A DNA stretch of 64,000 nucleotides from an archaeon (GCA_035289625.1 DATDWP010000028.1:9840-73839), one strand, 5' to 3'; positions 7,703 through 34,035 are shown, counted from the stretch's first letter. Notes: generated by a model not told the origin, from the letters alone. Program-made: numbers and translations.

Positions 7703-9493
7703 CTAAACATTATAGTAATATTCGCCACTTCTTTTTTGCTGCTGGTCTAGTTGCGAACCCGGCTTATTTGCCCGCGGCCTACCCGAGCCCGGATCTCGCC
7801 TATAGGTAATATCCATTCCTCGTAAAAATTTATTCATGCCATCTTGCATTGAAACTGCCCCGGCGGCAAACCCCTCAACAGATGCAATGCCATCAAAAAC
7901 AATCAAGCGATCGCTAACATAATCTTGGAACAAAATGTCATGGTCAACTACCATGCAGATTTTTTTATGGGAATCAACAACCGATCTTATTGTATCTGCC
8001 ATTGCAAGCCTATCTTCAATATCAACAAATGCTGAAGGCTCATCTAGAAGCACCATATCGCTCTGGCGGCACAAAGCTAGCCCTACTGCAACTTTTTGTA
8101 GTTCGCCACCTGATAGTTCAGAGAGATTATGATGGGAAAGATCAGTTAGGGCAAGTCTTCTATCCACTTCGCTTTTGAAAATCCCCCTATCAATATCTTG
8201 AGAATCTATAAAATCCCCAACACTAATTCCTTCTTGCGCGCTAATATATTGCGGTTTATATGAAACCTTAAGGCCCAAATCCACTGAACCGGAATCTGGC
8301 TTTTCAATTCCGGCAAGCATTTTTACAAAAGTGGTTTTGCCAATCCCGTTTGGCCCCAAAATGCCCAAAACCTCAGCTTCGCGTAAATCCCCTGGCTCAA
8401 CATGCAGGGAAAAAGAACCCAAAGTTTTTTTGAGGGCAGGATAGGACCCTATGACGCGCTTTTTTTTATAATCAGTTGAGGGCTTTACTTCAAACTTTAA
8501 TTCTTCACGCCTAAACCTCACGTTCTCATCAGAAACAAAGCCTTCCAAAAATTCATTTATCCCATTTTTTGCGCTCTTCTGATTTGACACTATCCCGTAA
8601 ACAGATTTTTTCCCATATAAAATGTTGATATAATCGCTCAAATAATCAAGAACAGCTAAATCATGCTCTATTACCATGACACCTTTTCCGGCATCGGCTA
8701 GAGATCGAATAAGCTTTGCTGCATTGAGGCGCTCTTTTACATCAAGAAAAGAAGTAGGTTCATCAAAAGCATAAAAATCGGCACTCTTGCACGCGGCTGC
8801 TGCAATTGCAACGCGCTGCAATTCCCCGCCGCTCAAATCTGAAATTTTCCTATGCATGATTTTTTCCAAATTGAGCAACTTAGAAACAGAATCAAGCACC
8901 CCCCTCTCATCCGCCTTTTCTAAAAGCTTCTTGCAAGTACCATCAAAAATCTTTGGAATATCAGTGATATTTTGCGGCTTGTATGAAACCTTCAACTTGG
9001 ATTCTTTCAGTCCAAAAAAATACGCCTGCATCTCTTTTCCGGCAAAATGCGAAATCACAGAATCATAATCTGCATCTTTTTCATAGTGCCCTAAATTAGG
9101 GACAAGCTGGCCTGAGAGGGTTTTTAGAATTGTACTCTTCCCAATCCCATTTCTTCCAATAAGCCCTACAACAGAACCATTTTTTACATAAGGGAGGCGG
9201 TAGATACGAAAATTATTTTCCCCAAACCTGTGCAACATATGTTGCGGCGATAGTTCCTGTACAAGATTTTCAATATAAATGCAATCAACCGGGCATTTTA
9301 TCACACAAATATTGCAGCCAATACAGAGATCTTCTGAAATAATAGGAATAATGCGCTTTTGCTCCTCTAGCCCTTCCGGAAGCGTAATGCACTCCTTTCC
9401 CGCCCTATTTACCGGACAGACGTTTCCGCATATATAATTGCACCCATCGCCGTTAATGCAGCGCTCCTGCTCTAGTACTGCTACCCTAACCAT
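7703..9493 (-). CDS. abcE1: ribosome recycling ATPase ABCE1 (RNase L inhibitor)
   Basis: N-terminal double 4Fe-4S Cys clusters (CINGDGCNYICGNVCP, CIGCNICVIKCP) plus two ABC cassettes (GLIGRNGIGKST, GILGPNGIGKTT, LSGGELQ x2). Confidence 0.9.
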   Translation of the reverse strand: MVRVAVLEQERCINGDGCNYICGNVCPVNRAGKECITLPEGLEEQKRIIPIISEDLCIGCNICVIKCPVDCIYIENLVQELSPQHMLHRFGENNFRIYRLPYVKNGSVVGLIGRNGIGKSTILKTLSGQLVPNLGHYEKDADYDSVISHFAGKEMQAYFFGLKESKLKVSYKPQNITDIPKIFDGTCKKLLEKADERGVLDSVSKLLNLEKIMHRKISDLSGGELQRVAIAAAACKSADFYAFDEPTSFLDVKERLNAAKLIRSLADAGKGVMVIEHDLAVLDYLSDYINILYGKKSVYGIVSNQKSAKNGINEFLEGFVSDENVRFRREELKFEVKPSTDYKKKRVIGSYPALKKTLGSFSLHVEPGDLREAEVLGILGPNGIGKTTFVKMLAGIEKPDSGSVDLGLKVSYKPQYISAQEGISVGDFIDSQDIDRGIFKSEVDRRLALTDLSHHNLSELSGGELQKVAVGLALCRQSDMVLLDEPSAFVDIEDRLAMADTIRSVVDSHKKICMVVDHDILFQDYVSDRLIVFDGIASVEGFAAGAVSMQDGMNKFLRGMDITYRRDPGSGRPRANKPGSQLDQQQKRSGEYYYNV

Positions 9494-9547
9494 GTAGCAA
9501 AAATGCCCCTGGAACCTTTAAAAAAGGCTTTTTGACATTGAATAGGT

Positions 9548-10591
9548 ATGCAAATAGTAAAAATTGACCGCAAAAACCACCAATTTGAGGTAGTCCCACA
9601 TAGCTTTGATGACCTGTGGCATCTTGAAAGACTTATTGAAAAAGGGGACAGGGTTAGCGGGACATCTGAGAGAAAAATCAAACCCAAAGAGGAAGGCGAC
9701 AAACCCTATAAAGAAAAAATATATGTCGAACTCGAGGTTGAAAAAGTAATATTTCACGAATCTACAAACCAACTACGCATACAAGGAACTGTAGTAGCGG
9801 CAAAGCCGGAAGAACTAGTGCCACTAAAATCCCACCACACAATAGAAGCAGAAGTGGGAAAGAGCATCAATGTTACAAAAAAATCACTCAAAAATTTCCA
9901 TGTTGAGCGGCTTCAACGGGCAAAAAATGCAAGTGGGCACGAAAAAGTGCTGCTCGTAATAATGGATGATGAACAGGCTGATTTGGTATTTTTAAAAGAC
10001 ACAGGAATTGATACAAAGGCCAGAATAATTGCACAAAAAGAAGGGAAAATGTTTAAAACCGGCGAAAAAGGGAAAACCAAACCATACTTTGAAGAGCTCT
10101 TAAAAAAAATACTCGATCTTGGCAGCTCAAAAATAGTGGTAGCCGGCCCTGGATTTGAAAGACAGAATTTTGAAAAATTTTTAAAAGAAAAATCCCCCAA
10201 ACTACAGGTAATATTTGAATCTACAAATTCAGTTGGCATTACCGGGATAAATGAACTGGTAAAGGGCGGAAAAATCGACAAAGTTATAGAAGGGTTCCAT
10301 TCAACAGAAGAAGCAAAAGCAGTTGAGCGCGTACTTGCTTCAATCTCACAAGAGATGTGCGCTATTGGACAAAAAGAAGTACTCGAATCTGTACAAGCAG
10401 GGGCGTGCCAGGAAATAGTGATTCTTGAGAGCAAAATGCACCAAAAAAACCAAAATATAGAGAAAATATTAGATAGCGCAGAACAATTTGGCGCAAAAAT
10501 ATTTTTTGTAGCAGATAAAAGCGAACCGGGAAAACAACTGGATGGAATGGGCGCAATTGCAGCGGTTTTGCGCTACCGCAAGAAATGGTGA
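9548..10591 (+). CDS. pelA: Pelota/Dom34 ribosome rescue factor
   Basis: N-terminal MQIVKIDRKNHQFEVVPHSFDDLWHLERLIEKGDRVSG typical of Pelota; eRF1-like central and C-terminal domains. Confidence 0.85.
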   Translation: MQIVKIDRKNHQFEVVPHSFDDLWHLERLIEKGDRVSGTSERKIKPKEEGDKPYKEKIYVELEVEKVIFHESTNQLRIQGTVVAAKPEELVPLKSHHTIEAEVGKSINVTKKSLKNFHVERLQRAKNASGHEKVLLVIMDDEQADLVFLKDTGIDTKARIIAQKEGKMFKTGEKGKTKPYFEELLKKILDLGSSKIVVAGPGFERQNFEKFLKEKSPKLQVIFESTNSVGITGINELVKGGKIDKVIEGFHSTEEAKAVERVLASISQEMCAIGQKEVLESVQAGACQEIVILESKMHQKNQNIEKILDSAEQFGAKIFFVADKSEPGKQLDGMGAIAAVLRYRKKW

Positions 10592-11053: not shown

Positions 11054-12763
11054 ATGGAGAGCAAAATAGCCAAGTTTTATGAAAAAGTGATAGGCGCAAT
11101 AGAGAGCGGCACTGTCACAAATAAAGAACAACTTGGCAAATACAAGTTAAAGGCCGGAAAACAAATAGGCATTGCCACATTGCCTTCAAACCCCAATATA
11201 TTGATGCACGCAAAAACCCCATCCGAACAGATGGTGCAACTTCTCTCAATTAAGCCCCTTAGAACTCTCTCAGGAGTTGCCCCGGTTGCAATAATGACAA
11301 AACCGATAAGCTGCCCGCACGGAACATGCATATACTGCCCAGGAGGGCCTAAAAGTGTATTTGGCTCTGTGCCACAATCATATACCGGGCACGAACCTGC
11401 TACTATGCGCGCAATTTCAAATAACTACGATTCATACAAGCAGACAATGAATAGGATATGCCAATACTACGCAATAGGCCATAACCCCGAAAAATTAGAA
11501 CTCATAATAATGGGAGGGACATTCCCTAGCTTTCCACAAGAATATCAAAATGAATTTATTGGAGAAGCATTTAGGGCAGCAAATGATTTTTCCGAAATGT
11601 TTTTTGATATGCAAGGAAAATTTGAAGCAGAAAAATTCAGCGAATTCTTCACAAACAAAATGGGAAAAACCCCAGACCTTGCGCAAAACCAAAAACCCTA
11701 TACACTACTAGATGTGCAAAAAGAGCATTTGCGAAATGAAAAATCCCACGTGCGCATTGTAACACTTTGCATTGAAACAAAACCGGATTGGAGCTTTGAA
11801 AAAGAAATAAATTCAATGTTAGAACTCGGGGCAACACGCGTTGAAATAGGAGCGCAAAGCATCTATAATGAGGTGCTAAAATATACAAACCGCGGGCACA
11901 CAATTGAAGATACAATAAAAGTAACCCAACTTCTAAAAGATAGCGCCCTTAAAGTGACATACCACATAATGCCAGGCCAGCCTCAATCAAACCCACAAAA
12001 GGACATTGAAATGTTTTCTGAACTATTTGAAAATGAAAATTATTGCCCGGATGCTCTTAAAATTTACCCCTGCATGGTAATGCCTGGAACTGCACTTGCA
12101 AAATTATATGAAAACAAAAAATTCATACCCCTTACTACTGAACAAGCAGCAGAAATTATTGCACAAGGATTTAGATACATACCAGAATATGTAAGAGTGC
12201 ACAGGGTGCAACGGGACATACCCACAAAATACGCGCTTACCGGAATTGACAAGAACAATCTTCGCCAAATAATAGAAGAAAAAATGAAAGAGCACTCAAT
12301 AGTGCAGCGTGACATACGCTTTCGTGAGAGTGGAATAAAATCCCAAAAAGGAATTTTTACGGATTATTCTAGTGTTGAACTAATCGAGAGAAGATACAAA
12401 GCAAGCGGATCAGAAGAAGTATTCATATCATTTGAAGATACTACAAATGACATCATACTCGGATTTTGCAGGCTACGAAAACCGAACAAACCGTTTAGGC
12501 AAGAATTCACCCCCACTACTGCTTGCATTCGCGAACTGCATGTATTTGGCTCTGAAGTCGGGATTGGAAAGCACAATCAGAGCAGCTCCCAACACAAAGG
12601 ATTTGGGAAAAAAATGGTGGAGCATGCTGAGGAAATTGCCCGCACAGAATTTGGCTACGATAAAATGCTTGTAATAAGCGGAGTTGGAGCGCGAGACTAC
12701 TACTCACGCAAACTAGGATACCAAAAGAGCGGAATTTACATGGCTAAAAATCTAAAAAATTAA
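11054..12763 (+). CDS. elp3: tRNA uridine(34) acetyltransferase Elp3 (radical SAM + GNAT)
   Basis: Radical-SAM Cys cluster CPHGTCIYCPGG and a C-terminal GNAT domain. Confidence 0.9.
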   Translation: MESKIAKFYEKVIGAIESGTVTNKEQLGKYKLKAGKQIGIATLPSNPNILMHAKTPSEQMVQLLSIKPLRTLSGVAPVAIMTKPISCPHGTCIYCPGGPKSVFGSVPQSYTGHEPATMRAISNNYDSYKQTMNRICQYYAIGHNPEKLELIIMGGTFPSFPQEYQNEFIGEAFRAANDFSEMFFDMQGKFEAEKFSEFFTNKMGKTPDLAQNQKPYTLLDVQKEHLRNEKSHVRIVTLCIETKPDWSFEKEINSMLELGATRVEIGAQSIYNEVLKYTNRGHTIEDTIKVTQLLKDSALKVTYHIMPGQPQSNPQKDIEMFSELFENENYCPDALKIYPCMVMPGTALAKLYENKKFIPLTTEQAAEIIAQGFRYIPEYVRVHRVQRDIPTKYALTGIDKNNLRQIIEEKMKEHSIVQRDIRFRESGIKSQKGIFTDYSSVELIERRYKASGSEEVFISFEDTTNDIILGFCRLRKPNKPFRQEFTPTTACIRELHVFGSEVGIGKHNQSSSQHKGFGKKMVEHAEEIARTEFGYDKMLVISGVGARDYYSRKLGYQKSGIYMAKNLKN

Positions 12764-13563
12764 GGCAGCACTAAACTAAAAAAAGAATCGAAGAGCTGGA
12801 ATGGAAGAAGCGAAAAAGTAAAAAATGGAAAACCCGAAAGCGGAGCTGCGAACTTTCCCTTAAGGGTTGGGCGCACATTCAATTCAGACGAGAAACTCTG
12901 CACTATTACATTCTCCTCTTGTGAAAATGCCCTAAAAGTAAAAGGCTGAACTCCCGACGTTTGCGGAGAGACCACAAGCTCAATATCCTCAACACTATTT
13001 GGCTTTAGAACAGCGCCTCTTGAAGAAAACCAATTACTTGGAAGAGAAGAGGAAACAGATACAGTTGCAGGGGCAATTGAAGAATTTGAAATCGTGACAT
13101 TATAAATTACCTTTGCCCCGACATAATAAAACTCATCTCGCGACTTTCTTACAAATGAAACATCAAGAAGATTCTTTTTTACAGCTACTTTAATTGTTGC
13201 AGATTCAACTATCCCTGAATTTTGCGAATTAGAAAATAGCACTTTTAGAGAATAAATATTACTCTGCGCCCCACTTGGAACCTTTATGCGCAAAACAAGA
13301 GAAGTATCAGTTCGCTCTTTTGCAACAACTTCCCAACCAGCAGGAATTGAAGGAGCAGCGATATCAATTGTGTCCCACTCAAATTCATATCCTGAATTGT
13401 CCGAAAAAATCAAATCAAAAGTCTGGCCCCCTGAGAGCTGGCCGGCAGTTATCGAGGCCCCATTTTGCATTGTAATTTCCTGCGGATATGTCATTGTAAT
13501 ATCAGCTAGGCAAATAGATGAAAAAAAGAGCAAAAATGCCCCAAAAAGCAACTTAGAGTGCAT
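12760..13563 (-). CDS. secreted hypothetical protein
   Basis: Signal-peptide-like MHSKLLFGAFLLFFSSICLA, beta-rich body, hydrophobic C-terminus. Confidence 0.4.
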   Translation of the reverse strand: MHSKLLFGAFLLFFSSICLADITMTYPQEITMQNGASITAGQLSGGQTFDLIFSDNSGYEFEWDTIDIAAPSIPAGWEVVAKERTDTSLVLRIKVPSGAQSNIYSLKVLFSNSQNSGIVESATIKVAVKKNLLDVSFVRKSRDEFYYVGAKVIYNVTISNSSIAPATVSVSSSLPSNWFSSRGAVLKPNSVEDIELVVSPQTSGVQPFTFRAFSQEENVIVQSFSSELNVRPTLKGKFAAPLSGFPFFTFSLLPFQLFDSFFSLVLP

Positions 13564-13603
13564 AAAATCTAATATGAAGTAAGACAGAAAGGTAGAAAAA
13601 CAA

Positions 13604-14233
13604 TTGGTTAAAGGCCTCTTAATAGGCGAAAAAATGCAAAAAACAGAGCAAGAAGGCAGATTTGAGATGATAAAGGCAAGGCATAAGGCCACATACCAAA
13701 CCGCCCTACTACAGGGAAAAGTTGACGAGCAGATGAGAGAACTCTGCTCATTTATAGCAGGCACAAAAGGATTTTACACCTCAAGCTGCTGTAGCGGAAG
13801 AATAATGCTACTGGAAAAGCGAGGGGAGAAGAAAAAAGAGAATTTTTTCCACCGCAAATGGCACCGAGAAATTACAAAAGAAGAACTCTTGGAAGGATTT
13901 AAAGAAAAAATAAAAGGGGAACTATGGTTTAAAGTCGAGCCATTTATCCTGCACATTGGCTGCAAAACACTAGAAGATGCAAACAAAATCCTTAGCGCAA
14001 TGAAAAAAGCAGGGGTTAAACGCGGCGGAATAATGATTGCACAAAAAGAAAAATTCCTAATAGAACTGCAAGGCACCGCATCGATTGGGCTCCCAATTAA
14101 AAAAGCAGAAAAAGAACTTGTAACCGAACAATACCTAACCCACTCAGTACTTGGAAAAGCCAACACTTTTATTAGCAACAACTACAAAAGGCTAAAAAAA
14201 CTCGAAGAAGAACTTAGCAAGGATTTGGAGTAG
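13604..14233 (+). CDS. taw3: tRNA wybutosine-synthesizing protein 3 (Taw3/TYW3)
   Basis: SSCCSGRI motif characteristic of TYW3. Confidence 0.65.
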   Translation: MVKGLLIGEKMQKTEQEGRFEMIKARHKATYQTALLQGKVDEQMRELCSFIAGTKGFYTSSCCSGRIMLLEKRGEKKKENFFHRKWHREITKEELLEGFKEKIKGELWFKVEPFILHIGCKTLEDANKILSAMKKAGVKRGGIMIAQKEKFLIELQGTASIGLPIKKAEKELVTEQYLTHSVLGKANTFISNNYKRLKKLEEELSKDLE

Positions 14234-14238
14234 AGAAA

Positions 14239-14772
14239 TTGAGATTATTTTTAGCAGTGCAGATCCCTTCTACAATAAAAGAGCAAATAAATAAACTATA
14301 TCTCAAAAACTTAAATTCTGCACAACTAAAAATTGTCCCTGCAAATAATTTACACATTACTCTTTGCTTTATCGGGCAAAAAAACAATAAAACCGCAAGA
14401 GAAATACTTGGAAAAATAGGAAAAATAGAATTCACTCCTTTCAAAATAAAATTATCCCAACCAGGACAATTTGAAAGAAGGGTTTTGTGGATCGGAATTT
14501 CTCAAGGAACAGAGCAATTGCATTCTCTGCATCAACAAATTTTACAAGCAACAGGAATTGAGAGCAAATTCAGTGCGCATATTACAATTGCAAGAAATAA
14601 AAATATGGAAAAAAAACAATTTTTAGAACTTGAACAGAGGATGAAAAATAGCACAGAACTTGAATTTGTTGCACAAAAAATTTCACTAATGCAATCAAAA
14701 CTAACTTCAAATGACCCTATTTATGAAGAATTAGAAGAGAGCACTTTTTCAAGAACAGATTCCGGCCTGTAG
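14239..14772 (+). CDS. thpR: RNA 2',3'-cyclic phosphodiesterase / 2'-5' RNA ligase (2H family)
   Basis: Two H-x-T-x motifs (LHITLCFIG and AHITIAR). Confidence 0.75.
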   Translation: MRLFLAVQIPSTIKEQINKLYLKNLNSAQLKIVPANNLHITLCFIGQKNNKTAREILGKIGKIEFTPFKIKLSQPGQFERRVLWIGISQGTEQLHSLHQQILQATGIESKFSAHITIARNKNMEKKQFLELEQRMKNSTELEFVAQKISLMQSKLTSNDPIYEELEESTFSRTDSGL

Positions 14773-16283
14773 TAGTACTGCTGAATGAGATTTTCAACAT
14801 CCGGGGCTGCAGAAATATTATTTTTTAGCATCCACTCCAAAACCTTTTGGCGAACATAAATTTCCCTTTCAATTTCTTTTTTTGGCTTGAGGGTTTTTGC
14901 GGCAAGAATATCAAGAACATTCATCGGAACATCTGTTCTTCTAATAGAATCGCTCCTTCTGTCCCACTCATACACATTACTCAAAAGCGCCTGGGATTCC
15001 ATCGAACTAACTTCAGTAACAGCCAAAACCCTTCTCTCAATCCCCTTGCCCTTTACATAAATCCTAAACTGCACCACAATTATATTGAGAAGAGGAATCA
15101 TTGATTCTGGAACGCTCATTGGTTCAGCCTTGAGGCGCAGCAGCATCTCTTTTGCTGAATTACTATGAAGCGTTCCCAAAATGCCCTTATGGCCAGTGTC
15201 CATTGCCAAAAACATTGTCTGGGCCTCCTCGCTACGCACTTCCCCCACAATGAGTCTGTCCGGCCTCATCCTCATGGCATTTTTCAAAAGATCATCCATA
15301 CTAACCCCCTCCTGGCCCTTCATTTTTGGCCGCGATTCCATCTGGATCCAATTCTCCCTCTTACCAAGCTGGATTTCAAGTGTATCTTCAATTGAAATAA
15401 TCCTCTCTGGTTGGCGGATAAAACCTGAAAGGGCATTTAGGGTTGTGGTCTTTCCGGAGCCAGACCCGCCACTAACAATAATGTTCATAGGTTCAATCCC
15501 CACACCTTCAACCATAACCCACATGAACGCCGCAAGCTCGCTTGAAAATGTACTATTTTTTATTAACTGGATAATACTCATCGGAACTGAACTAAATTTT
15601 CTAATAGTAAGGCTTGGGCCAAAAGGGGTAACAAAAGAAAAAGTCGCATTTGCACGATTGCCATCCGGCAATCTGGCATCTAGAAGGGGGCGATCAGCAT
15701 CAAATGTCTTCCCCACGCTCTTTGCAATTTTTTGCAAAATCAAATCTAAAGATTTTTTAGAGCTAAAAGCTATATTTGTCCTGCAGTGGCCATATTTTTT
15801 ATGGAAAACAAAAATATTGCGCTCATAACCATTTACCATTATCTCCTCAAGGCCCTCATCTTCAATAAACGGAGCAAGCACTCCATAACCAACAGAATCC
15901 GCAAGAGAAAGTGAAGCTACCAGCGGGAAATTTCGCATCTTTGGAAAATACTCCTGCAAAATTGACATCAAGGCAAGCTTTGTGGAATTAAAATCATCAG
16001 TTGCCATCAGCGAATCGTGGAAATCGTTGTATGTAATCGGCTTTATTATGCGCTCGCGAAAATCAGCTAAGAATTTTTTTGGAAAAACCTTTGACATTGA
16101 CTGCTCTGCCTGTTCAAAACTAACCTTGCCCAAAATCAGCGAAACCAAAGCATCCTTTAGCTGCGCCTCCTCTTGCGAAAACTGAGGGTCCTTCACAGCA
16201 TATTGCGGATAAGGAAATCCTTCAGAAATGCTCACGCGGCCGTAAGATTCCAATACACTGCCCTTCTGGCCATCATTATCCAT
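14721..16283 (-). CDS. type II/IV secretion-family ATPase (FlaI/PilB-like pilus assembly ATPase)
   Basis: Walker A VSGGSGSGKTTTLNAL; RPDRLIVGEVRSEEA box; 520 aa. Confidence 0.8.
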   Translation of the reverse strand: MDNDGQKGSVLESYGRVSISEGFPYPQYAVKDPQFSQEEAQLKDALVSLILGKVSFEQAEQSMSKVFPKKFLADFRERIIKPITYNDFHDSLMATDDFNSTKLALMSILQEYFPKMRNFPLVASLSLADSVGYGVLAPFIEDEGLEEIMVNGYERNIFVFHKKYGHCRTNIAFSSKKSLDLILQKIAKSVGKTFDADRPLLDARLPDGNRANATFSFVTPFGPSLTIRKFSSVPMSIIQLIKNSTFSSELAAFMWVMVEGVGIEPMNIIVSGGSGSGKTTTLNALSGFIRQPERIISIEDTLEIQLGKRENWIQMESRPKMKGQEGVSMDDLLKNAMRMRPDRLIVGEVRSEEAQTMFLAMDTGHKGILGTLHSNSAKEMLLRLKAEPMSVPESMIPLLNIIVVQFRIYVKGKGIERRVLAVTEVSSMESQALLSNVYEWDRRSDSIRRTDVPMNVLDILAAKTLKPKKEIEREIYVRQKVLEWMLKNNISAAPDVENLIQQYYYRPESVLEKVLSSNSS

Positions 16284-16353
16284 TTTTCTCCCCTACAAAT
16301 AGCTATTTATTATACAATATTTTACTATATAAACACCAAGGATAGTGGACTAA
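16284..16353. promoter_or_regulatory. divergent AT-rich promoter region with TATA-like boxes
   Basis: tttattatacaatattttactatataaacacc between the divergent ATPase and cca genes. Confidence 0.4.
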
Positions 16354-17733
16354 ATGGAAAAGATACTAAAAACGGTTTTGAAAAAAATTACACCTACGCA
16401 AAAGGAAATTTCCGAGCAAAAAAAATTCGCGCAGCTCATAATATCGCGCATAATGAAAATTCCAGGAAAACACCAAAAAGCTGAACTTGTAGGAAGCATT
16501 GGAAGAAGCACACACCTTGCAGGGGATAATGATATTGACATATTTGTATTCTTCCCAGAAGAGCTAAGCCGCGAAGAATTTGAAAAAGAGGGAATTCGCA
16601 TCGGAAAAGCAATCTTTAAAGGCGAGAATTGGGAAACAGCCTACTCCGAACACCCCTACATACGCGGAACAATCGGAAAATACGATGTTGAAATAGTACC
16701 GGCGTACAATGTGCTTGACCCAAAAAACATGAAAAGCGCAGTTGATAGAAGCCCCTTCCACAACCAATACATTATATCGCAAATGATCAGTGGGCAAGAG
16801 CAGCAAGTTAGATTACTAAAGCAATTTATGAAAGGAATAAAATGCTACGGAGCAGACCTTAGTTCAAACGGCTTTCCCGGCTATGTTGCCGAAATACTAA
16901 TACTAAAATATGGGAATTTTGAAAAGTGCATCCAAGAGGCAGCGCAGTGGAAAGAGAAGCAAGTAGTCGATCTTGCAAATTACTACACAAAAGAAGGAGC
17001 AGAACATAAATTCAACACGCATTTTGTAGTAGTTGACCCTGTTGATAAAAATAGAAACGTGGCAGCAGCGCTCTCTCTAAACCAATACGCGCGCTTTATT
17101 GCCGCGGCAAGAGCCTTTTTGGAAAAACCTTCATTCAATTTCTTTTTCCCAAAAAATCACAAACCATGGAGCACAGCTGCCCTTAAAAAATTCCTCAAAA
17201 AAACCGAACTTACTGCAATACATCTTGGCTATCCCAAAGGCGCAGTTGAAGATGTGATGTGGGGAAGCTTGCGAAGGCTTGGCGCAAAAATTGCAACACA
17301 AACACAGGGAGCCGGTTTTATTGTAAAGCGCAGCTCACAATGGCTCGAACACCCAAAACACATGGCAATAATTTTAGAACTCGAATCAACAAAACTAAAT
17401 TCAGTCAAAGTAATAACCGGGCCATCTGTAATGGATTCAAATAACTCTATGAGCTTTATCAAATCCCATCCACACCCACTATCAGGGCCGCGCATTGAAA
17501 ACGGGCGCTGGGTATTGGAAATTGAAAGGGAGCACACACAAATTTCACAGTTCCTCACACACCTTTTCAAAAAACTCAAAAAAGAAGAAAAAGAACTCAT
17601 CAAAAAAGCTATCTCGCAGCGCTTCCAAATACTTAACGAAAAATCAATAATAGGCCTATACAAAAAGAACAAGAACTTCTCCTCTTTTCTCACTGCATAC
17701 CTAAAAGGAAAAGAAGAGTTTTTGGAGCGCTAA
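16354..17733 (+). CDS. cca: archaeal CCA-adding enzyme (class I tRNA nucleotidyltransferase)
   Basis: GSIGRSTHLAGDNDIDIFVFFP nucleotidyltransferase motif; archaeal architecture. Confidence 0.9.
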   Translation: MEKILKTVLKKITPTQKEISEQKKFAQLIISRIMKIPGKHQKAELVGSIGRSTHLAGDNDIDIFVFFPEELSREEFEKEGIRIGKAIFKGENWETAYSEHPYIRGTIGKYDVEIVPAYNVLDPKNMKSAVDRSPFHNQYIISQMISGQEQQVRLLKQFMKGIKCYGADLSSNGFPGYVAEILILKYGNFEKCIQEAAQWKEKQVVDLANYYTKEGAEHKFNTHFVVVDPVDKNRNVAAALSLNQYARFIAAARAFLEKPSFNFFFPKNHKPWSTAALKKFLKKTELTAIHLGYPKGAVEDVMWGSLRRLGAKIATQTQGAGFIVKRSSQWLEHPKHMAIILELESTKLNSVKVITGPSVMDSNNSMSFIKSHPHPLSGPRIENGRWVLEIEREHTQISQFLTHLFKKLKKEEKELIKKAISQRFQILNEKSIIGLYKKNKNFSSFLTAYLKGKEEFLER

Positions 17734-17739: not shown

Positions 17740-18963
17740 GTGGGAATCATGAAGCAGCTAAAAAAAGAACCTGAAAAAGAAGAAAGTCTTACGAAGGAGA
17801 TATTTGTAGAGAAATTAAGTTCATTATTGGGTGCCAAAAAAGAGACCATCTCATTTGGAGTTGTTCGAAACAGCCTTTCACAGAAACAATTTCAAACTGC
17901 TATCTCATATTTTAATATTCTTTTTCCACACCCACAAATAACAGAAGGGTTCACCGGGGCAACTGATGATTTGTTGGATAAAGTTTTTTCCGCGGTCAAA
18001 AATCACAAACCAATTGACATGTACATGGCTTTTGGCGGACGTATTTCTGGCGAAGTTCCCCTCGGTATTTTAAAATATGTTTATTATACTGCGCAGGTTT
18101 CCGAGGAAGCTTCAAAATTATTCGGTAGACACCCAAAAACAACCATTCTTTTGACAAATTCCCATTACCTAAGTGAAATAATGGGGTTTCCTTTAGAGGA
18201 GGCAAAAAAAGCCGAGAGTTTTCAGAGGCACGTATTGGAAAAGGGATTGAATCGTATTTGCACGCGCATAGGTGTCCCGAATACGGCATTTCAAATTGTT
18301 TCTTATGACGAATTACGAAACACCCCAGAAGGACGCCGATTTGTCAAAGAATTTTTAGAAAATAAAAAAATTACGATTGGCAAAAGTGGTTTTGAATCCC
18401 TGGTTAATATGGCTAAAAAAGCCAAACAGGTCGATAGATTTGAAGCTGAACGTCTGGCCGAAAACTACGCTAAAGAACAAGTTGTTGAATCCAGCTTAAT
18501 TATGCATTTGTTCAAACCTGCTTTCAAAATAGTTGAACCAAGCGAAGAAATTTTTGACGTTGTCGAACGGCAAAATGGCTTGCCAGAAGTCACCAAGAGG
18601 CCTTCTATTGTACTAAGAGGCCAGCGGAAAAATGCAACAGATATTCACATTGTTGGGCCAGCATATCACCCACACGACAACCACCCGATTGACAATGTAA
18701 TAAAATACCGTGGCGGTGATATTTCAAGCTTTTTGGCAAAACACAAATTAGTGAGTAGAGGAGACTTAATACGGATGGCAGTGATGCACAAACACGCACC
18801 AAAGCATTTATTGGATACTATGCAAAATAATCCTAATATGACTTATGCCGGTTTGCGAAATACAGATAGAAGCGGCTTTAACAAAGTCCGAAATTTTGTC
18901 AAGGCTTCGCTCACTACATTCCACGAATCAAGAAAAAAACCAAGAAGAAGGGTGCGTCTTTGA
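17740..18963 (+). CDS. hypothetical His-rich protein
   Basis: No known motif; HIVGPAYHPHDNHP and HKHAPKH; CGN arginine codons atypical for this genome; stop overlaps TTG start of the next gene. Confidence 0.4.
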   Translation: MGIMKQLKKEPEKEESLTKEIFVEKLSSLLGAKKETISFGVVRNSLSQKQFQTAISYFNILFPHPQITEGFTGATDDLLDKVFSAVKNHKPIDMYMAFGGRISGEVPLGILKYVYYTAQVSEEASKLFGRHPKTTILLTNSHYLSEIMGFPLEEAKKAESFQRHVLEKGLNRICTRIGVPNTAFQIVSYDELRNTPEGRRFVKEFLENKKITIGKSGFESLVNMAKKAKQVDRFEAERLAENYAKEQVVESSLIMHLFKPAFKIVEPSEEIFDVVERQNGLPEVTKRPSIVLRGQRKNATDIHIVGPAYHPHDNHPIDNVIKYRGGDISSFLAKHKLVSRGDLIRMAVMHKHAPKHLLDTMQNNPNMTYAGLRNTDRSGFNKVRNFVKASLTTFHESRKKPRRRVRL

Positions 18964-19958
18964 AACGTAATCTTATAATTGCAGATTATTCGTCTCTTCA
19001 ATCGCCAGTCACAAAAGATATTTTGAAAATTTTAACAAATGTAAATATTTCGCAATACCCTGACCCACTCTATTCAAACCTAAAAAAATGCATTGCAAAA
19101 TATTGTGGAATAAGCTCAAATAATATAGCGGTAGGAAATGGCGCTGATGACTTGATACAGCTAATTACATCCGTTTTTGGAAAGCGAATTGTAATTCCAA
19201 CTCCGTGTTTCATTACATATTCACTTTCAGCCAAAACCCTTAGAAAAAAAATAAAATTCATAAACTGTATAAAAAAAGGCCGATTTAAGCTTCCAAAAAT
19301 TCGATTAAAAAAATATGATATTCTCTGGATCGCAAATCCAAACAATCCACTCGGAGAATATCTACCTATAGAGGAAATTTTATCCAAAATTTCAGGAAAT
19401 GGAATAACAATAATTGATGAAGCGTACATTGAATTTACCGGAAAGCAAAAAGTGAGCCCACATCTTTTGAAAAAATCGGGTTTGATAATTTTAAGAAGCT
19501 TTTCAAAAGGCTGGCCATTAGCCGGTCTTCGAGTAGGTTATGTTATATCAAACCCAGCAGTAATTCGACAACTCGAAAATCAGAGACTTTTATTTCCAGT
19601 TAATGCAGTGGCAAATACCTTGGTTCCGATTTTATTGGAAAAAAATAAATTATATCAAATAGAAAGGGAAATAGCAAGAAAAACTTCTCTTGATTTTGTG
19701 AAAATTTTTCAAAATAGCGGTCTTCGAACCAGTAACAGTGTAACAAACTTTTTTTGTGTACAATTCCAAAATACAATTCAAGCGGCTAGATTTTATAGAG
19801 AAATTTCAAAACAAGGCGTTCGTATATTACCCCCTAATGACAAGGAATTTGTAGGATTGCCTTCTAACTACCTTAGAATTTGCATCCCTAAAATAAAAAA
19901 TGTAAGCCGCATGAAAGCAGCTATTAAAAAAACACTTCAAACCTTGAAACATAGGTAA
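18960..19958 (+). CDS. class I/II PLP-dependent aminotransferase (HisC/CobD-like)
   Basis: NPNNPLGEY and SFSKGWPLAGLRVGY (PLP-binding Lys). Confidence 0.7.
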   Translation: MKRNLIIADYSSLQSPVTKDILKILTNVNISQYPDPLYSNLKKCIAKYCGISSNNIAVGNGADDLIQLITSVFGKRIVIPTPCFITYSLSAKTLRKKIKFINCIKKGRFKLPKIRLKKYDILWIANPNNPLGEYLPIEEILSKISGNGITIIDEAYIEFTGKQKVSPHLLKKSGLIILRSFSKGWPLAGLRVGYVISNPAVIRQLENQRLLFPVNAVANTLVPILLEKNKLYQIEREIARKTSLDFVKIFQNSGLRTSNSVTNFFCVQFQNTIQAARFYREISKQGVRILPPNDKEFVGLPSNYLRICIPKIKNVSRMKAAIKKTLQTLKHR

Positions 19959-20014
19959 GGTTTCATCCCAGGCAATAGTTACTTGTGGAATCCTTTTTAT
20001 CATCCAATCACTTT

Positions 20015-20090
20015 TGGCGGGCCCGGAGGGAGTCGAACCCTCAACCTTTCGCTTCGAAGGCGACTGCGCTATCCATTGCGCCACGAGCCC
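20015..20090 (-). tRNA. tRNA-Arg(TCG), CCA encoded
   Basis: Cloverleaf folded by hand from reverse complement GGGCTCGTGGCGCAATGGATAGCGCAGTCGCCTTCGAAGCGAAAGGTTGAGGGTTCGACTCCCTCCGGGCCCGCCA: 7-bp acceptor, D-arm, anticodon loop CTTCGAA, T-arm GAGGG/TTCGACT/CCCTC. Confidence 0.8.
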
Positions 20091-20487
20091 TTGGGTAGAA
20101 AGTATTGGGGTCAAGTTCATTATTTAATATCTCTTTTCTTTTGGCATAGGAAATATTTGTAGGGCAAAATCCAAATTTTTGCCAGATCTGATATCTAGAA
20201 ATTTGAGAATTGTTCATAAAACCTATATTCCGAATCCAGCTATTAAGGCTCGAATAACCTCTCAAATAGATGAGATACTTTATATGAGAATATGAATATG
20301 TTGGCTTTGCAACTAATTGAGTGCAATTAAACCCGGTTTTTTGTAGAATAGAAAATACACCATCTGAAAGTTGCTTAGAACAAACACCTAGCTTAATTAC
20401 AGGATAGGAGTGTTTTTTCTTATCCCCATGAACCTTTTTAAAGCTTCCCCACAAGAAAATAGTAGTAAACTTGGAAAGGCAAATTTT

Positions 20488-20640
20488 ATGAAAACATGCA
20501 TTACAACAAACAAGGTCGTAATAAATGACTTTATAGAATTCCACTGCCCGAGCTGCAATGAGCGAATAGTACGAAGCCTTGAAGCGCGCGCAAAGAGCTT
20601 ATCATATAAGTGCCCAACATGCAGCTTTAGCGGCCCATGA
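20488..20640 (+). CDS. Zn-ribbon RNA-binding protein (COG2888-like)
   Basis: HCPSCNERIV...YKCPTCSFSGP; C-terminal CPxCGFxGP-like signature; conserved position upstream of aEF-1beta. Confidence 0.6.
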   Translation: MKTCITTNKVVINDFIEFHCPSCNERIVRSLEARAKSLSYKCPTCSFSGP

Positions 20641-20655: not shown

Positions 20656-20928
20656 GTGATTAATATGCCAGATAAAACATTACTAATTGTTAGAATAAAT
20701 GCAAAAGATATGGAAAAACTTGATGAAACAGTTGAGGCAATTAAGGGAATAAAGAGCGGGGCTGTAAAGGATGTTCGAAAAGAACCCATTGGTTTTGGAG
20801 TCCAGATCATAAAAGCAGGAATATTGATTGATTCAAAAGACCAATCACTCCCGGAAAAAGTGCTAACAGAAATAAACGCGCTAGCAGAAGTTGAAGATGC
20901 TGAAATTGAAGGCATGACACTACTCTAA
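20656..20928 (+). CDS. ef1b: translation elongation factor aEF-1 beta
   Basis: ~90 aa; EPIGFGVQIIKAGILIDSKD...EVEDAEIEGMTLL matches the aEF-1beta pattern. Confidence 0.8.
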   Translation: MINMPDKTLLIVRINAKDMEKLDETVEAIKGIKSGAVKDVRKEPIGFGVQIIKAGILIDSKDQSLPEKVLTEINALAEVEDAEIEGMTLL

Positions 20929-26349: not shown

Positions 26350-29300
26350 TTAGAGCAAATCCTCAATATCTTTTGAAGCAGCATCCTTTGTATCCTCAAA
26401 ATCAACTGCCGCCTTTTCAAGTGTTGTCTCATGGCGCGAATCTTGCGAGAGCTTTTTTCTCACCTTGAAAAAAACAGGAAAGTTCACAGCTTCCCCGACA
26501 ATTAAAGCTTCGCCTGTTCGCATTGTAGTTATCATATCAAGGCTACGCTTATCTAGCCCTTCACTAGTTTTTCCAATATGGTCAAGATCGTAAGGGTTTG
26601 TCACGCGCAATATTATATGAGTGTTGCACTGGGAAAGGGCTGTTGTTGAAAGATTTATCGGGCGCTGGGAAATTAGACAAATTGTTGCCCCGAACTTTCT
26701 TCCCTCGCGTGCAATTGTTTCCAAAATCCCCCTGCTAATTGCACCCTCTTTTGAAACCTTTTCCGGGATGAATTGGTGCGCCTCTTCAAGAACCATTGTA
26801 AAGGGCGCGATTTTTTTGTTCTTTCTTTCATAAAATAATTTTGACGAAAAATACGCAACAATTATCTGCTTTTTTTTCATATCAACAATATCGCTAAGAT
26901 CAACAATTGTAAGCTGCCCAGGCCTTATCAGATCATTAATGCTCGGGCTGTCTGTTTTTGAAAATAACCCAAGCTGCTCAAGTGACATAATCCAACCAAC
27001 AAGTGATTGCTTTGTTGCTTCCTTCATCTCTGTGTCTTTGAAAATTTCCGATTTTACCGCGCTAAAATCAAATGGCCCGAGCCCTTCTTTCATTTCCCTT
27101 TTCAATTTTTCCAAAACGCGCGCAAGATCCCTTTTTTGCGGGGATGTGAGCCCGGGAATAATCGAAGCCAGCATTCCAATTGAGAGCTTTGGGACCCCTA
27201 TCTGAATTTCCGGGGCCCTAATATATCTTGTTTTTGAAGAAAAATCAGCATAGCGAGAATCTGTCGGGGGCTCAGCAAATGAACGGTACTCTCCGTGCGC
27301 GTCCATTACAATTACTGCAATTCTACCATCCTCTTTTTTTCGCGCAAGGAGCTCTTCAAATAAAACAGAAGTTAGATAGCTGTTGTGTACAATAATTTCA
27401 TTTGCTACAAAGTTTGAATTTTCAACTGAAATATCATAAACATATTTATAGGCGGGTTTTATTTTCTGTATGTCTTCTACTGTGTCAAAAAATACATTCA
27501 TTTCACAAAATTTTTTAACTACACTTATCCGTGCTCTTGCATTGATCAAGTTTTGGCTGGATTCTTGTGCAATTTTTTTAAGTGAATCTGCAAAAGACAG
27601 CACCAATGAATTGTCAGCTTGGCCTCTTCCTTTTGAATGGCTATAGAGAAATTGTTTGTAACACCCATTAGTTTTGCACAATCCCTCGGTTGAATAACCC
27701 AAAGACTCGCAAAAAGCCTTAATTTCAGAAAGAGCCTTGTTTCTATCATCAGAACACACCCTTTCAAGGCCATTTAAGTTCCCACCCTTTATCTTTAACA
27801 CATTTTTTGCAAGAATGAAAGTCGTATTTTTAGGGGATGTTATTTCCCGAACAACCCTTCTTGCAGTGGTGCTTGACACCCCACTACCGGCAGCAATTTG
27901 ATTAAAATCAAGACCCTCAGAATATGCAGTTTTTAGTATTTCAAGAGCGTTCTGCTCAGATATAGGAATCAATGTTTCAAATACTGAATTTATTTTTACC
28001 AATGTATTTTCAATCTCTTCTGCCCGTTTTTCAAAAAGCCCAATAAGCACTCTCAAACTTTCCCTCGAAGGATTATCCTTACGGTAAAGGTAATTATTTA
28101 TGCCTGAAGACTCTTTTTGCGGCTGTGGCATTCTTAGCAATGAAAGTATTTCCGCAAGATGCGTATGTGTATGCGGTACAACATCAATATTCGTGTTGGG
28201 TTTTGTATGAACCCATTTATCCAATGCGGATTTTTTGTAATCTATCAGCAGGTTTAAATCGTGCAATTTGCGTATTTCCCCCGAGCCACTCACTAAAACT
28301 CTCTGGTATTCTTCCCCATCCACTATTTTGACACTGCGAAGCGTTATGACCCCTAACTTCGTAAATATTTCCTCTACCCCATCAGCTAGCCTTTTGCCGG
28401 CAACTGTTACATCTAACTCTGATTTATCCGGGTTTACATACCCATCACAATCGATAAAAGCCGAGATAAAATTTTTTAGGACATTTTTTTCACTTTGGAG
28501 AATTTCATCCGGAATGAATTTTGTCCAACTTGATTTGGTAAAACCATAGCCATTTAGGCATCGTGCGAGGACAATAGAATCTATTAATAATTCCCCTTTG
28601 GATTTGGCCTTTTTCACCCTGAGAGCAAATTTTTCTTCACAAATATCGGTAAAGTCTTTTTGTATTAGCTGATTTTCATTCGAGAAATTCATCCTCGATT
28701 TAAGCGTATTATGGCCTTCGGCAATAAGGTAGGCCATAAGTCTTGCAAAGCGTTCATCAACAGAATATAAAAGTTTGGTCGAAATCTTCGACTGTTTTTG
28801 GATAGCATATCCATCTTCCATCTTAACCCCCTTGAATTTTGCAGCTGAAGCAGTGAAATCTATTTGGGACTTTTTCCCAACCCAATCTACTCTTGGCAAA
28901 AATACATAATCATTTACCGAAATATTTTGTGCTTCTTTCCATTCAATTGCCCCGTTAAATACAGGCACCAAATGTTCTGGCGTCACCTCAATTTCTTTTC
29001 CAGTCCTTGTTTTTATCCGAATGGCATTTTCCGGAGCCTTTCTCCTATAATACCCAAGTATTTTCCCCGGAACTACCTTATTGACAGACTCTGAAAGCGC
29101 ATACGCCCTCAAATCAAAATCCTCTTCCCAAAACTCTACTCCATTTTCAACTTTCTTATTTTTTTCCAACACAGAATCTACAATCCCACCAATGGTTTTC
29201 TGTGCGCTATTCTCAAGCAATATTTTCGTGTCAGGTTTTACACATTTACCGGCACCAGACATCGCCAAAATCGCAAGGTGCTTTTGGAAAAGGCGTGAAA

Positions 29301-32818: not shown

Positions 32819-33538
32819 ATGTCAATATATCGATTCCTCGTGTATTCAGACGAGTCTATTCATGGAGTCAGACTTAGAAAATTAGTAAAGAAAGTAGCCG
32901 ATGAACTTACGCCGCCTATATTAGGAGAAACTCAGAATTTGGACGACGAACACGAAGTTGAAGTTCTATGCAGCGTTCAGGATAAAGCTCATCTTGCGAC
33001 CTTTGTTGCCATTATTATAAAATCAGCAAAAGAAATTGCAGATGTTGATGTGAAAATTGCACAGCCTTTAGAGGTAAATGATTTACATAAATATAAAAAT
33101 TTCAAAGATTTTAAGGTAATTCGTGGAGATGCTTTGAAAGAAATTGAATTGGAAATAGAAGGTGCTGAAAGGTTATTTAGAAAATTACAGGAAAATTTCG
33201 AAAAGTTTATTTTGAAAAGAGAAAATAATAAGTTGAAGGGGCTAGATTATCTATTGAAAACGATAGCCGGAAATTTAAAACCAGACGAACCGAAAGCCAA
33301 ATGGCATACCGCCAGAACTGCAATATCGGATTTTGTCGCTGAACCATTCGATGATGATTTGTTTCAATCGGTACAAGAAATAGACCAATTGTTGTATGAA
33401 TTAGCTGATTTTGAAGGCCAAGATATCAGTAAATTGCCAAAAGAACAAGTTGAAAAATTATTGCGACTAATAGACATTTCCCGTAAGAAAATCGCTGATT
33501 TGCACCGGCAGGAAGGTTCAAATATTATTATTAAGTAG
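32819..33538 (+). CDS. hypothetical protein, candidate toxin/effector partner of the Panacea-domain protein
   Basis: No motif; sits 39 nt upstream of the DUF4065 gene in an AT-rich island. Confidence 0.35.
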   Translation: MSIYRFLVYSDESIHGVRLRKLVKKVADELTPPILGETQNLDDEHEVEVLCSVQDKAHLATFVAIIIKSAKEIADVDVKIAQPLEVNDLHKYKNFKDFKVIRGDALKEIELEIEGAERLFRKLQENFEKFILKRENNKLKGLDYLLKTIAGNLKPDEPKAKWHTARTAISDFVAEPFDDDLFQSVQEIDQLLYELADFEGQDISKLPKEQVEKLLRLIDISRKKIADLHRQEGSNIIIK

Positions 33539-33576
33539 TTAATATAGAGTTCTAGAAGGTTGGTCGGTATTTTGGT

Positions 33577-34035
33577 ATGTCGGAAAATGTTACAGTTAAG
33601 GCAATTGATGCGTACGAATATATTTTTGGAAAATTAAGTTTAGGTAGTTTTAGCAGCCGCTTGATGTTCCAAAAAACAATTTATTTACTAAAATTATTTG
33701 GCGTTCCTAGTTTCCAAGATTTGTCTTATACTTGGTATAAAAGAGGCCCTTATTGTTTCGAGTTAGGCGGGATTTACAGTAAAAAATACCAAGAGAAATA
33801 CTATTTAGATGAAAAGGATGTTGAGTCTATCAAGAATTGTAAAAAAATAATTTTAGAGTTAATATCTGATGAAAAATACGGGGAACTAAATTCTTCAATA
33901 GCATATTTACTTCATGATGAAAAACTTTCTGATGAAGATATCATCAAACGAATGTTCTTAACAAAACCGTGGTTTGAAAAAGCAAACGTAGAATCTGCAT
34001 TGGTAAAATTAAAGCAACTTTTACGCCCTAATTAA
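33577..34035 (+). CDS. Panacea-domain (DUF4065, GepA/SocA-like) protein
   Basis: FQKTIYLLKLFGVPSFQDLSYTWYKRGPYCFEL matches the LQKLLY...G...F.AW..GP core of Panacea domains. Confidence 0.55.
   Translation: MSENVTVKAIDAYEYIFGKLSLGSFSSRLMFQKTIYLLKLFGVPSFQDLSYTWYKRGPYCFELGGIYSKKYQEKYYLDEKDVESIKNCKKIILELISDEKYGELNSSIAYLLHDEKLSDEDIIKRMFLTKPWFEKANVESALVKLKQLLRPN

Follow-up and report, generated by a model that had tools for sequence, protein, structure and literature searches.

A rare gene pair beside a native tRNA-Arg gene in a DPANN archaeon: a putative synthetase-fold orphan and a truncated HisC/CobD-type partner

The class-Ic fold of the tyrosyl- and tryptophanyl-tRNA synthetases (TyrRS and TrpRS) recurs in a small set of enzymes through which amino acids or aminoacyl-tRNAs enter other chemistry. 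Isonitrile synthases of the IsnA/PvcA type act on the amino group of tyrosine or tryptophan without a tRNA, and the tailoring enzymes known from clusters of cyclodipeptide synthases (CDPSs) are oxidases, P450s and methyltransferases. In HisC and CobD, which use pyridoxal phosphate (PLP), an N-terminal arm helps to bind phosphate. CDPSs have the class-Ic synthetase fold without its HIGH and KMSKS signatures and do not activate amino acids with ATP; in the CDPS AlbC the catalytic residues are Ser37, Tyr178, Glu182 and Tyr202 (PMC11610984). Here we describe a two-gene operon in a stretch of 64,000 nucleotides of archaeal core chromosome at about 40% GC (DATDWP010000028.1:9840-73839, assembly GCA_035289625.1; hereafter the window, from whose first letter all positions are counted). 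One gene encodes a 404-residue orphan protein and the other a truncated HisC/CobD-family PLP enzyme. Their host belongs to the DPANN archaea and is related to Candidatus Iainarchaeum (Iainarchaeia-like).

Positions 17740-20090 had been flagged for their arginine codons and suspected to be horizontally acquired DNA. On balance, we favour reading the locus as a rare operon, placed in a variable slot beside a native tRNA gene, that joins a synthetase-fold orphan to a truncated PLP partner. Transfer is then the ordinary part of the story, an old and small insertion that matches its host in composition. Of greater interest is the cargo, which cannot be placed by sequence, yet which structure prediction puts in the fold group of TyrRS/TrpRS, the CDPSs and the isonitrile synthases.

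Arrangement, rarity and pairing of the two genes

The two open reading frames (ORFs) were found as originally described, between cca and tRNA-Arg(TCG). The features of the locus are these:

16354-17733, plus strand: cca, class I (archaeal) CCA-adding enzyme (Pfam tRNA_NucTransf2, 2.3e-41, plus CAA_C and NTP_transf_2)
17749-18963, plus strand: basic, His-rich orphan protein of 404 residues, ATG start
18960-19958, plus strand: HisC/CobD-family PLP enzyme of 332 residues, TTG start (PF00155, 2.4e-34)
19959-20014, no strand: convergent spacer of 56 nt from the aminotransferase stop to the 3' end of the tRNA, with a T5 run on the plus strand
20015-20090, minus strand: tRNA-Arg(TCG) with genomically encoded CCA (ARAGORN; Rfam RF00005, 65.3 bits)
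20095-20421, minus strand: remnant of a LAGLIDADG-like gene, C-terminal ~109 residues, by homology to an ORF of a related genome (L003)
20488-20640, plus strand: HVO_2753-type small zinc-finger protein (Pfam match)
20656-20928, plus strand: EF-1beta (Pfam match)

The public gene calls give the orphan 404 residues; an alternative GTG start at 17740 extends it to the 407 residues of the original prediction. The ATG lies 15 nt past the cca stop, and the pair is appended behind cca and probably co-transcribed with it. A TTGA overlap, claimed earlier and plain in the sequence, joins the orphan gene to the aminotransferase gene and couples the translation of the second gene to that of the first. Several other details held up as well. 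The distance from the aminotransferase stop to the tRNA, given as about 60 nt, measures 56 nt; this tRNA is the only one in the window with an encoded CCA, the other being a tRNA-Val (45260-45334) that has none; and the orphan is indeed rich in histidine (3.7%, against a window mean of 1.56%).

The pair is extremely rare. In 5.8 billion clusters and 1.84 billion representatives, the latter searched exhaustively with phmmer, the orphan has a single homologue (P0002, 61% identity). A third copy of the gene, partial and 56% identical at the protein level, lies on a 2.9-kb contig (L002). Two scans of metagenome contigs yielded no further copies of the family, and tblastn against plasmid and phage collections yielded none. 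In all, the pair is known from three contigs among some 15 billion predicted proteins.

The pairing is conserved. On all three contigs that carry either gene, the orphan gene is directly followed by the special aminotransferase gene, whose products are 59-60% identical, and on two of the three the genes overlap by 4 nt (GTGA on the second contig, L001). These are the only genes that the 20 kb of L001 and the 64 kb of the window have in common; the flanks are unrelated. The order on L001 is tRNA-His(GTG), HisRS, the orphan gene 4 nt past the HisRS stop, the aminotransferase gene and a small AbrB-like ORF, with a histidine ammonia-lyase gene (HutH; TIGR01225, 627 bits), a CysK/SbnA-like PLP enzyme and an isochorismatase-family hydrolase further downstream. 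In both contexts whose upstream side is available, the operon therefore starts within 4-15 nt of a tRNA-handling gene: cca in the window, HisRS after tRNA-His on L001. The L001 HisRS is closest to sequences that bear the label Micrarchaeota (69-72% identity); its identity to the HisRS of Diapherotrites is 55-59%. As annotated, the L001 tRNA-His(GTG) (8588-8662) falls inside the public HisRS call (8551-9996), whose product is about 60 residues longer than its homologues; the real HisRS start is probably an ATG near 8738.

The predicted fold of the orphan and its truncated PLP partner

No sequence method assigned the orphan to a family, including the remote homology search that the original prediction had proposed. 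The protein has no match in Pfam (even at E<=10), NCBIfam, PADLOC, PHROG or PDB sequences, and phmmer and profile searches of the PDB, with full-length and Rossmann-only alignments, came back empty or at chance level (RhoGEF, a Rid-family protein). We rejected a defence-system or phage origin, there being no PADLOC or PHROG match.

Structure prediction was more informative. The AlphaFold2 (AF2) model of the window protein itself is poor (pLDDT 50); its Foldseek matches are almost all CDPS and TyrRS, at E-values of 0.06-1. Because this model was too poor, a second AF2 run targeted the homologue P0002. The resulting model (pTM 0.54; pLDDT 66-83 over residues 13-255) has a beta-loop-alpha Rossmann topology, and its top 50 Foldseek matches in the PDB are all class-Ic-fold proteins: CDPS, IsnA/PvcA, TyrRS and TrpRS. 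The best of them are AlbC (3oqv, 1.1e-4), the isonitrile synthase PIsnA (9dh4 and 9dhm, 1.7-3.3e-4) and the TyrRS of N. equitans (3.6e-4), followed by human and yeast TyrRS, several TrpRS and PvcA (3e59). CDPSs prevail among the matches of both models. Target-normalised TM-scores of the P0002 model against the fold matches are 0.35-0.48. The predicted layout of the orphan runs from an N-terminal helical bundle through the class-Ic Rossmann domain and a poorly modelled segment to a C-terminal region of helices and a basic tail. The whole protein carries a net charge of about +19, which, with the modelled C-terminal region and tail, would fit nucleic-acid binding.

Three motifs had been picked out by eye before any fold match was seen, against reference sequences verified in the PDB. 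The orphan reads 'YMAFGGRISGEVPLGI' where the TyrRS of M. jannaschii (MjTyrRS) has 'YIGFEPSGKIHLGH', both HIGH histidines being lost; it reads 'TILLTNSHYL' where MjTyrRS has 'IILLADLHAYL'; and 'FQIVSYDELRNTPEGRR' resembles AlbC 'FRVRSLSELQETPEYRA', collinear with the other two. At the HIGH position, after strand 1, both full-length copies read 'SGEVPLGI' ('VPLG'), with no histidine; the L002 copy does not include this region. The candidate for KMSKS is an invariant 'KRPSI' (residues 286-290; region pLDDT below 50) that lacks the second lysine, and here the L002 copy agrees. With both signatures degenerate, classical amino-acid adenylation is unlikely, as in CDPSs. Since sequence methods gave no significant signal, the fold assignment stands on a predicted structure of medium confidence together with the collinear motifs. 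On these grounds, we think that the orphan probably has a fold of the class-Ic aminoacyl-tRNA-synthetase type.

The partner is easier to classify. It scores 119.6 bits against PF00155 (cut-off 19.7), and its NPNNP, DEAY and SFSK(PLP-Lys)...RVGY motifs align with those of T. maritima HisC (1h1c), the closest solved structure. Judged by these motifs, it is a genuine fold-type-I PLP enzyme that has kept the PLP-lysine. The top two NCBIfam models are HisC (TIGR01141, 191.1 bits against a cut-off of 276.55) and CobD (TIGR01140, 175.9 against 290.55). All three pair-linked aminotransferases lack the N-terminal arm of 25-50 residues, read 'YSSLQS' where their relatives have the '(S/A)N(E/I/V)NP' motif, and contain a 'PPNDKEF' insertion; the N-terminal HGG segment of the CobD type is missing too. 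The loss of the arm, YSSLQS and PPNDKEF are confined to the three pair copies, none of the 27 other best relatives that we aligned showing them. The three enzymes are a truncated subfamily of their own. Outside the pair, the nearest relative is about 31% identical and relatives reach at most 31-38%; they come from both bacteria and archaea, and the question of bacterial versus archaeal affinity raised by the original prediction ended without an identifiable donor domain.

Could the pair be ordinary metabolism, with the aminotransferase serving as the host's HisC or aromatic aminotransferase, the upstream ORF being an unrelated lineage-specific protein, and the codon pattern mere noise of low expression? 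HisC is the best NCBIfam and PDB match; HisRS and HutH are neighbours on L001 and a TrpE-like gene on L002; and low GC at third codon positions (GC3) is intrinsic to the aminotransferase gene in all hosts. However, the enzyme falls far under the HisC and CobD equivalog cut-offs, it is missing the arm and the NENP motif that essentially all listed relatives have, and it occurs only with the orphan gene, three times, while being absent from the syntenic relatives. We regard this explanation as very unlikely.

The orphan might instead be a novel kinase or phosphotransferase, or some other enzyme, that feeds a phosphorylated substrate to its partner in the way that the L-threonine kinase PduX serves CobD. 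The two families nearest to the PLP enzyme both have phosphorylated substrates, and their C-terminal 'NF' and 'LRI' arginine positions align with it; the orphan has a Gly-rich loop, 'FGGRISGE', after strand 1; and tight operon coupling suggests consecutive steps. Set against this, the Foldseek matches are exclusively of the class-Ic fold, with no kinase family or fold among them, there are no corrinoid genes nearby in any context, and the PLP enzyme is missing the arm that helps to bind phosphate in HisC and CobD. A kinase role is thus rather improbable in our estimation.

The slot between cca and tRNA-Arg and the arrival of the pair

We fetched related genomes via cca and compared gene order by tblastn of all window proteins together with tRNA scans. 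Four were obtained (L003; L004, Candidatus Iainarchaeum andersonii; L005; L006), with cca identities of 59, 58, 56 and 44%. In the window, ABCE1, pelota, Elp3, a TYW3-like gene, LigT, a type-IV-pilus/archaellum ATPase and cca come before the pair, and the HVO_2753-type zinc-finger (ZnF) gene, EF-1beta, Rad50, an intein-containing HerA and NurA come after tRNA-Arg(TCG). All four relatives keep the order ABCE1, pelota, Elp3, LigT, ATPase, cca, slot, tRNA-Arg(TCG) on the minus strand, second slot, ZnF, EF-1beta, Rad50. The left anchor, cca, is conserved, and so is the right anchor formed by the ZnF gene and EF-1beta, in the same order throughout L003-L006.

What lies between cca and the tRNA differs. 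L003 and L004 have a 160-residue minus-strand ORF there, L005 has LemA and an M48 peptidase, and in L006 cca and the tRNA are only about 100 nt apart. The pair was not found by tblastn in the slot of any of the four, whereas three independent assemblies of the window organism have it at the same position. The interval between cca and tRNA-Arg is a slot whose content varies from one related lineage to the next, and the pair is its occupant in this one. In the window, LemA and the M48 peptidase follow tRNA-Val (45260-46925, genes at 45.4-46.9 kb); the L005 pair (11706-13123) is 66-68% identical to them, but sits in the cca/tRNA-Arg slot. This suggests that gene pairs shuffle between tRNA-flanking positions in this clade.

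The conserved neighbourhood at 11054-17733 is itself rich in genes for tRNA and translation: Elp3, the TYW3-like gene, a LigT 2'-5' RNA ligase/phosphoesterase and cca, with ABCE1 and pelota upstream. The TYW3-like gene, at about 13634-14233, was placed by mapping from public records. Mechanical ORFs at 13774-14181 (minus strand), and the long form of the one at 12760-13764 (minus strand), are probably not real genes.

The tRNA is native. At the orthologous position L003, L004 and L005 have tRNA-Arg(TCG), and L006 has an intron-containing tRNA (11441-11526, minus strand). The latter, which ARAGORN missed and Rfam scores at 54.8 bits, has an 18-nt insertion in the anticodon loop that we read as an intron; its anticodon was read as UCG by eye. 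Since the same tRNA stands in the same place in relatives without the pair, it is ancestral to the locus, serves the whole genome and is not a co-acquired decoder. In archaea, tRNA-Arg(UCG) belongs to the standard set and reads CGA, and outside the pair the window has 72 CGA and 40 CGG codons.

The original prediction had suggested that the tRNA might be a matching decoder brought in with the genes. A recent islet of this sort, inserted at the 3' end of a tRNA gene together with its own tRNA-Arg(UCG) for CGA/CGG-rich genes, is hardly credible: its central claim is largely refuted by synteny, the tRNA being in place in four relatives without the pair, and the native genes already hold 112 CGA and CGG codons. 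Some observations do suit it. The pair is found 3' of the tRNA and in none of the relatives, and within its CGN codons CGA and CGT are enriched. Aligned flanks show that the window has GCCA at the 3' end of the tRNA where relatives read GCTT or GCTG; only the window copy has an encoded CCA, and the T-rich 3' flank of the relatives has been replaced. This fits a rewritten tRNA 3' junction, with encoded CCA and a new flank, though merely two substitutions are involved. But neither an attachment (att) repeat nor an integrase was found. The att-site check proposed by the original prediction was negative: nowhere does the window repeat the 3' end of the tRNA. A blastn-short search with the tRNA region matched at most 10 nt of the tRNA body elsewhere in the 64 kb, a local repeat search over 12-24 kb gave low-complexity A-rich families only, and about 45 window proteins scanned with Pfam include no integrase, recombinase or transposase domain.

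Codon usage, the reason for flagging the patch, tells a similar story. Counts cover the 73 long non-overlapping ORFs of the window. The pair was said to be CGN-rich among neighbours that use AGA and AGG (AGR). It has a CGN:AGR ratio of 24:20, against 324:470 in the remaining ORFs (Fisher p=0.08), and of the named neighbours cca itself stands at 11:7 (61% CGN) and pelota at 7:5. The contrast does not hold. The finer claim, of usage rich in CGA, CGT and CGG and in TTA and TTG (TTR) leucine codons, fares better. Within the CGN codons of the pair, CGA, CGT and CGG are favoured over CGC, which is scarce (3:21, against 173:151 elsewhere in the window; p=8e-5), and TTR-Leu codons are enriched (39:31, or 39/70, against 520:1195, or 520/1715; p=2e-5); both tests were picked after the data had been inspected. 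Global measures are ordinary. Per-codon usage deviation puts the two genes at ranks 21 and 23 among the 36 genes of at least 200 codons, and the tetranucleotide distance of the 2.2-kb patch is z=0.72, with 18% of equal-sized windows at least as atypical. The codon rationale for flagging the patch was mostly mistaken, and composition argues against a recent arrival of the pair. The case is also a caution that arginine-codon contrasts read by eye can mislead.

The proposed look at codon adaptation and GC3 per gene left one deviation, in the aminotransferase gene alone: it is AT-rich (GC 0.324, GC3 0.233, about -2.2 SD). We considered this low GC as a mark of transfer and rejected it. The orthologues on both other contigs lie about 7 GC points below the partner gene, equally GC-poor relative to partner and host, so we read low GC as a property of the gene and not a scar of transfer. 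Moreover, the LigT gene (14239-14772, plus strand) is also AT-rich (GC 0.315, GC3 0.222) though syntenic in relatives; low GC alone is therefore no mark of foreign genes in this genome.

The host of L001 differs from the Iainarchaeum relatives in using 86% CGN and 50% TTR-Leu codons. Of the window genes of at least 150 codons, the orphan gene is the most like that host (z=2.4), a point that the islet model could claim, yet the window's own usage fits it better, and the aminotransferase gene shows no such lean. The codon lean of the orphan gene is a faint hint of transfer from a CGN- and TTR-rich lineage, suggestive only.

Did the pair arrive, or was it left behind? Vertical inheritance with differential loss would make it ancestral in this part of DPANN, near tRNA and translation genes, and lost or displaced in most lineages. 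The pair proteins are 56-61% identical between hosts, near the level of housekeeping proteins (cca 56-59% among Iainarchaeia, HisRS 55-59% between L001 and Diapherotrites), and their genes are largely host-like in composition, as vertical descent would have it. Nevertheless, we consider it unlikely. The pair occurs in three different contexts on the three contigs found among about 15 billion proteins; four syntenic relatives are without it, and in the most divergent of them, L006, cca and the tRNA are nearly adjacent. Even the conservation can be read the other way: a non-housekeeping orphan as conserved as HisRS between Micrarchaeota- and Diapherotrites-labelled lineages fits transfer better, and leans towards it over purely vertical descent.

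Because the pair is absent from four syntenic relatives and occurs in unrelated contexts elsewhere, a lineage-specific insertion or replacement beside the tRNA is the best reading. The event was old, or the donor was of similar composition, and what it has left is a mild bias for CGA and CGT over CGC and for TTR-Leu. Of the predicted horizontal acquisition at a tRNA locus, then, the position outside the conserved gene order and the absence from relatives stand; the att repeat, the integrase and the compositional island are missing.

The other side of the tRNA is variable as well. A mechanical ORF of 167 residues at 20041-20544 (minus strand), uncalled in public records, runs into the tRNA and the ZnF gene. 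Its residues 42-150 are 63% identical to residues 163-271 of an intact L003 ORF (12148-12987, minus strand; 279 residues) that has two LAGLIDADG-type motifs and overlaps the 5' end of its tRNA; the window remnant has lost both motifs. The L003 ORF can be aligned to a LAGLIDADG_3 protein from L001 (E=8e-6); its alignments to PF14528 and to the HerA intein endonuclease are weak. L004 has no LAGLIDADG-like gene at the tRNA. The spacer between tRNA-Arg and ZnF is a second variable slot, visited by mobile elements. These observations fit a window tRNA flanked by a decayed, free-standing homing-endonuclease-like gene, at a locus prone to exchange driven by double-strand breaks; nothing links the remnant mechanistically to the pair. 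Inteins occur in both genomes: the HerA helicase gene of the window (26350-29799, minus strand) has a large one with a LAGLIDADG_3 endonuclease domain, and the L001 PolB carries one.

Two other regions of the window stand out by composition. The low-GC patch at 32819-36391 (GC 0.28-0.35, GC3 0.18-0.30, TTA/TTG-rich Leu) consists mostly of family-less ORFs and also holds an odd 316-residue protein with a partial match to a proteasome subunit; together with 52-53.5 kb it is the most atypical region of the window by tetranucleotides. As a candidate for foreign DNA, this patch is stronger than the flagged one. The stretch at 52000-55000 has a strong A-over-T skew (0.3-0.53) and atypical tetranucleotides in a block that includes ribosomal protein S19e and eIF-6, and this skew is probably linked to expression or composition.

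Possible chemistry and comparison with known systems

What might the pair do? Like CDPSs and IsnA enzymes, the synthetase-like protein may bind an amino acid or aminoacyl-tRNA and form no classical adenylate, and the PLP enzyme may make or consume the amino or keto partner. Together they would form a small pathway that derivatises an amino acid, possibly tRNA-dependent and possibly related to histidine or aromatic amino acids. We infer both substrate and tRNA dependence from gene context only: the operon abuts tRNA-handling genes, hence the suggested handling of amino acids or aminoacyl-tRNAs, and the L001 neighbourhood has a histidine theme. Dependence on tRNA is a tentative suggestion that we rather doubt.

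A number of results weigh against our overall reading. On the side of the fold, Pfam searched at E<=10 gives the orphan no match to tRNA-synt_1b (PF00579), CDPS or DIT1_PvcA (PF05141). The AF2 models were built on a two-sequence alignment and have a mean pLDDT of 50-57; residues 256-351 are essentially unmodelled, TM-scores span 0.25-0.48 and RMSDs are 7-10 Å. Against a four-sequence CDPS profile, hhalign returned a sole stretch, residues 176-203 versus AlbC 106-133 (E=0.19), the same one that had been read by eye, and against MjTyrRS it gave a probability of 0.09%. The score of the CDPS HMM on the orphan was equalled or beaten by 93 of 500 shuffles, and the Smith-Waterman score against MjTyrRS was reached by 13 of 300, which is not significant. 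On the side of the locus, adjacency to a tRNA gene was noticed post hoc and comes from two contexts; the third, on L002, has an ACT-domain protein and the TrpE-like gene downstream, with its upstream side cut off. The direction of change in the slot (gain in the window lineage or loss elsewhere) is not proven, and there is no mobility gene or att site to account for the arrival of the pair. A canonical TyrRS that might have improved the profile was not present in the fetched loci.

As an occupant of a tRNA-flanking site, the pair can be compared with islands that target tRNA genes. Like them, it is lineage-specific DNA immediately 3' of a tRNA gene in a lineage-variable slot, and a mobile-type gene, the LAGLIDADG-like remnant, adjoins the other side of the tRNA. 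Unlike them, it comes without an integrase, a direct repeat of the tRNA 3' end or the composition of an island, and all it carries is two genes that probably share the transcription unit of cca.

The aminotransferase resembles HisC and CobD in its PF00155 match and in the NPNNP, DEAY and SFSK...RVGY motifs, and differs from both in scoring below the two equivalog cut-offs and in missing the N-terminal arm and the NENP and HGG motifs.

For the orphan, three class-Ic families offer themselves for comparison. The CDPSs (AlbC, YvmC, Rv2275) provide the best Foldseek match and many further ones. Candidate catalytic residues of the orphan, S103 (in 'RIS'), 'NYAKE' (242-246) and 'AYH' (308-310), follow the order of AlbC S37, Y178/E182 and Y202/H203. 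S103, Y243/E246 and Y309-H310 are invariant in the available copies; they were placed by eye and not through a significant alignment, and Y309-H310 needs an insertion of about 40 residues relative to AlbC. By contrast, the orphan has no significant sequence similarity to CDPSs, its 404 residues include extra N- and C-terminal regions where CDPSs are single domains of about 210-290 residues, its partner is an enzyme of the PLP aminotransferase fold, and its host is a DPANN archaeon.

With TyrRS and TrpRS, the orphan shares Foldseek matches, a Rossmann domain followed by a helical C-terminal region, local motifs near the HIGH strand and the 'ILLxDxH' strand, and a gene position next to tRNA and synthetase genes. 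It departs from them in having 'VPLG' for HIGH and 'KRPSI' for KMSKS, and in the absence of a PF00579 match or an hhalign signal. As its family is known from three contigs only, it is not a housekeeping synthetase.

The isonitrile synthases (IsnA/PvcA/Dit1) are the second-best Foldseek family, and among the top 20 matches no others align over such long stretches (about 250-330 columns) or reach such high query-normalised TM-scores (0.30-0.34). The orphan differs in having no PF05141 match and in being partnered with a PLP enzyme; no Fe/2-oxoglutarate oxygenase of the IsnB/PvcB type occurs among its neighbours in the window, L001, L002 or L009. A literature search turned up no relevant pairing of a synthetase-like protein or CDPS with an aminotransferase in archaea.

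The boldest version of the proposal is a new tRNA-linked pathway of DPANN archaea, in which the TyrRS/CDPS-fold protein, without ATP activation, would use an aminoacyl-tRNA (His-tRNA or Arg-tRNA, for example) and the truncated HisC-like enzyme would act on the tRNA-bound or released product. We think this improbable. If it were true, the orphan would be a new branch of the class-Ic synthetase superfamily that sequence searches do not detect. More generally, should the fold and the tRNA link hold, the pair would add a new branch to the synthetase-derived enzymes that draw amino acids or aminoacyl-tRNAs into other chemistry. Its hosts would be DPANN archaea, in whose reduced genomes one does not expect dispensable biosynthetic modules. 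Such a pathway would parallel SepRS/SepCysS, PSTK/SepSecS and the CDPSs with their tailoring enzymes, with a new pairing of folds.

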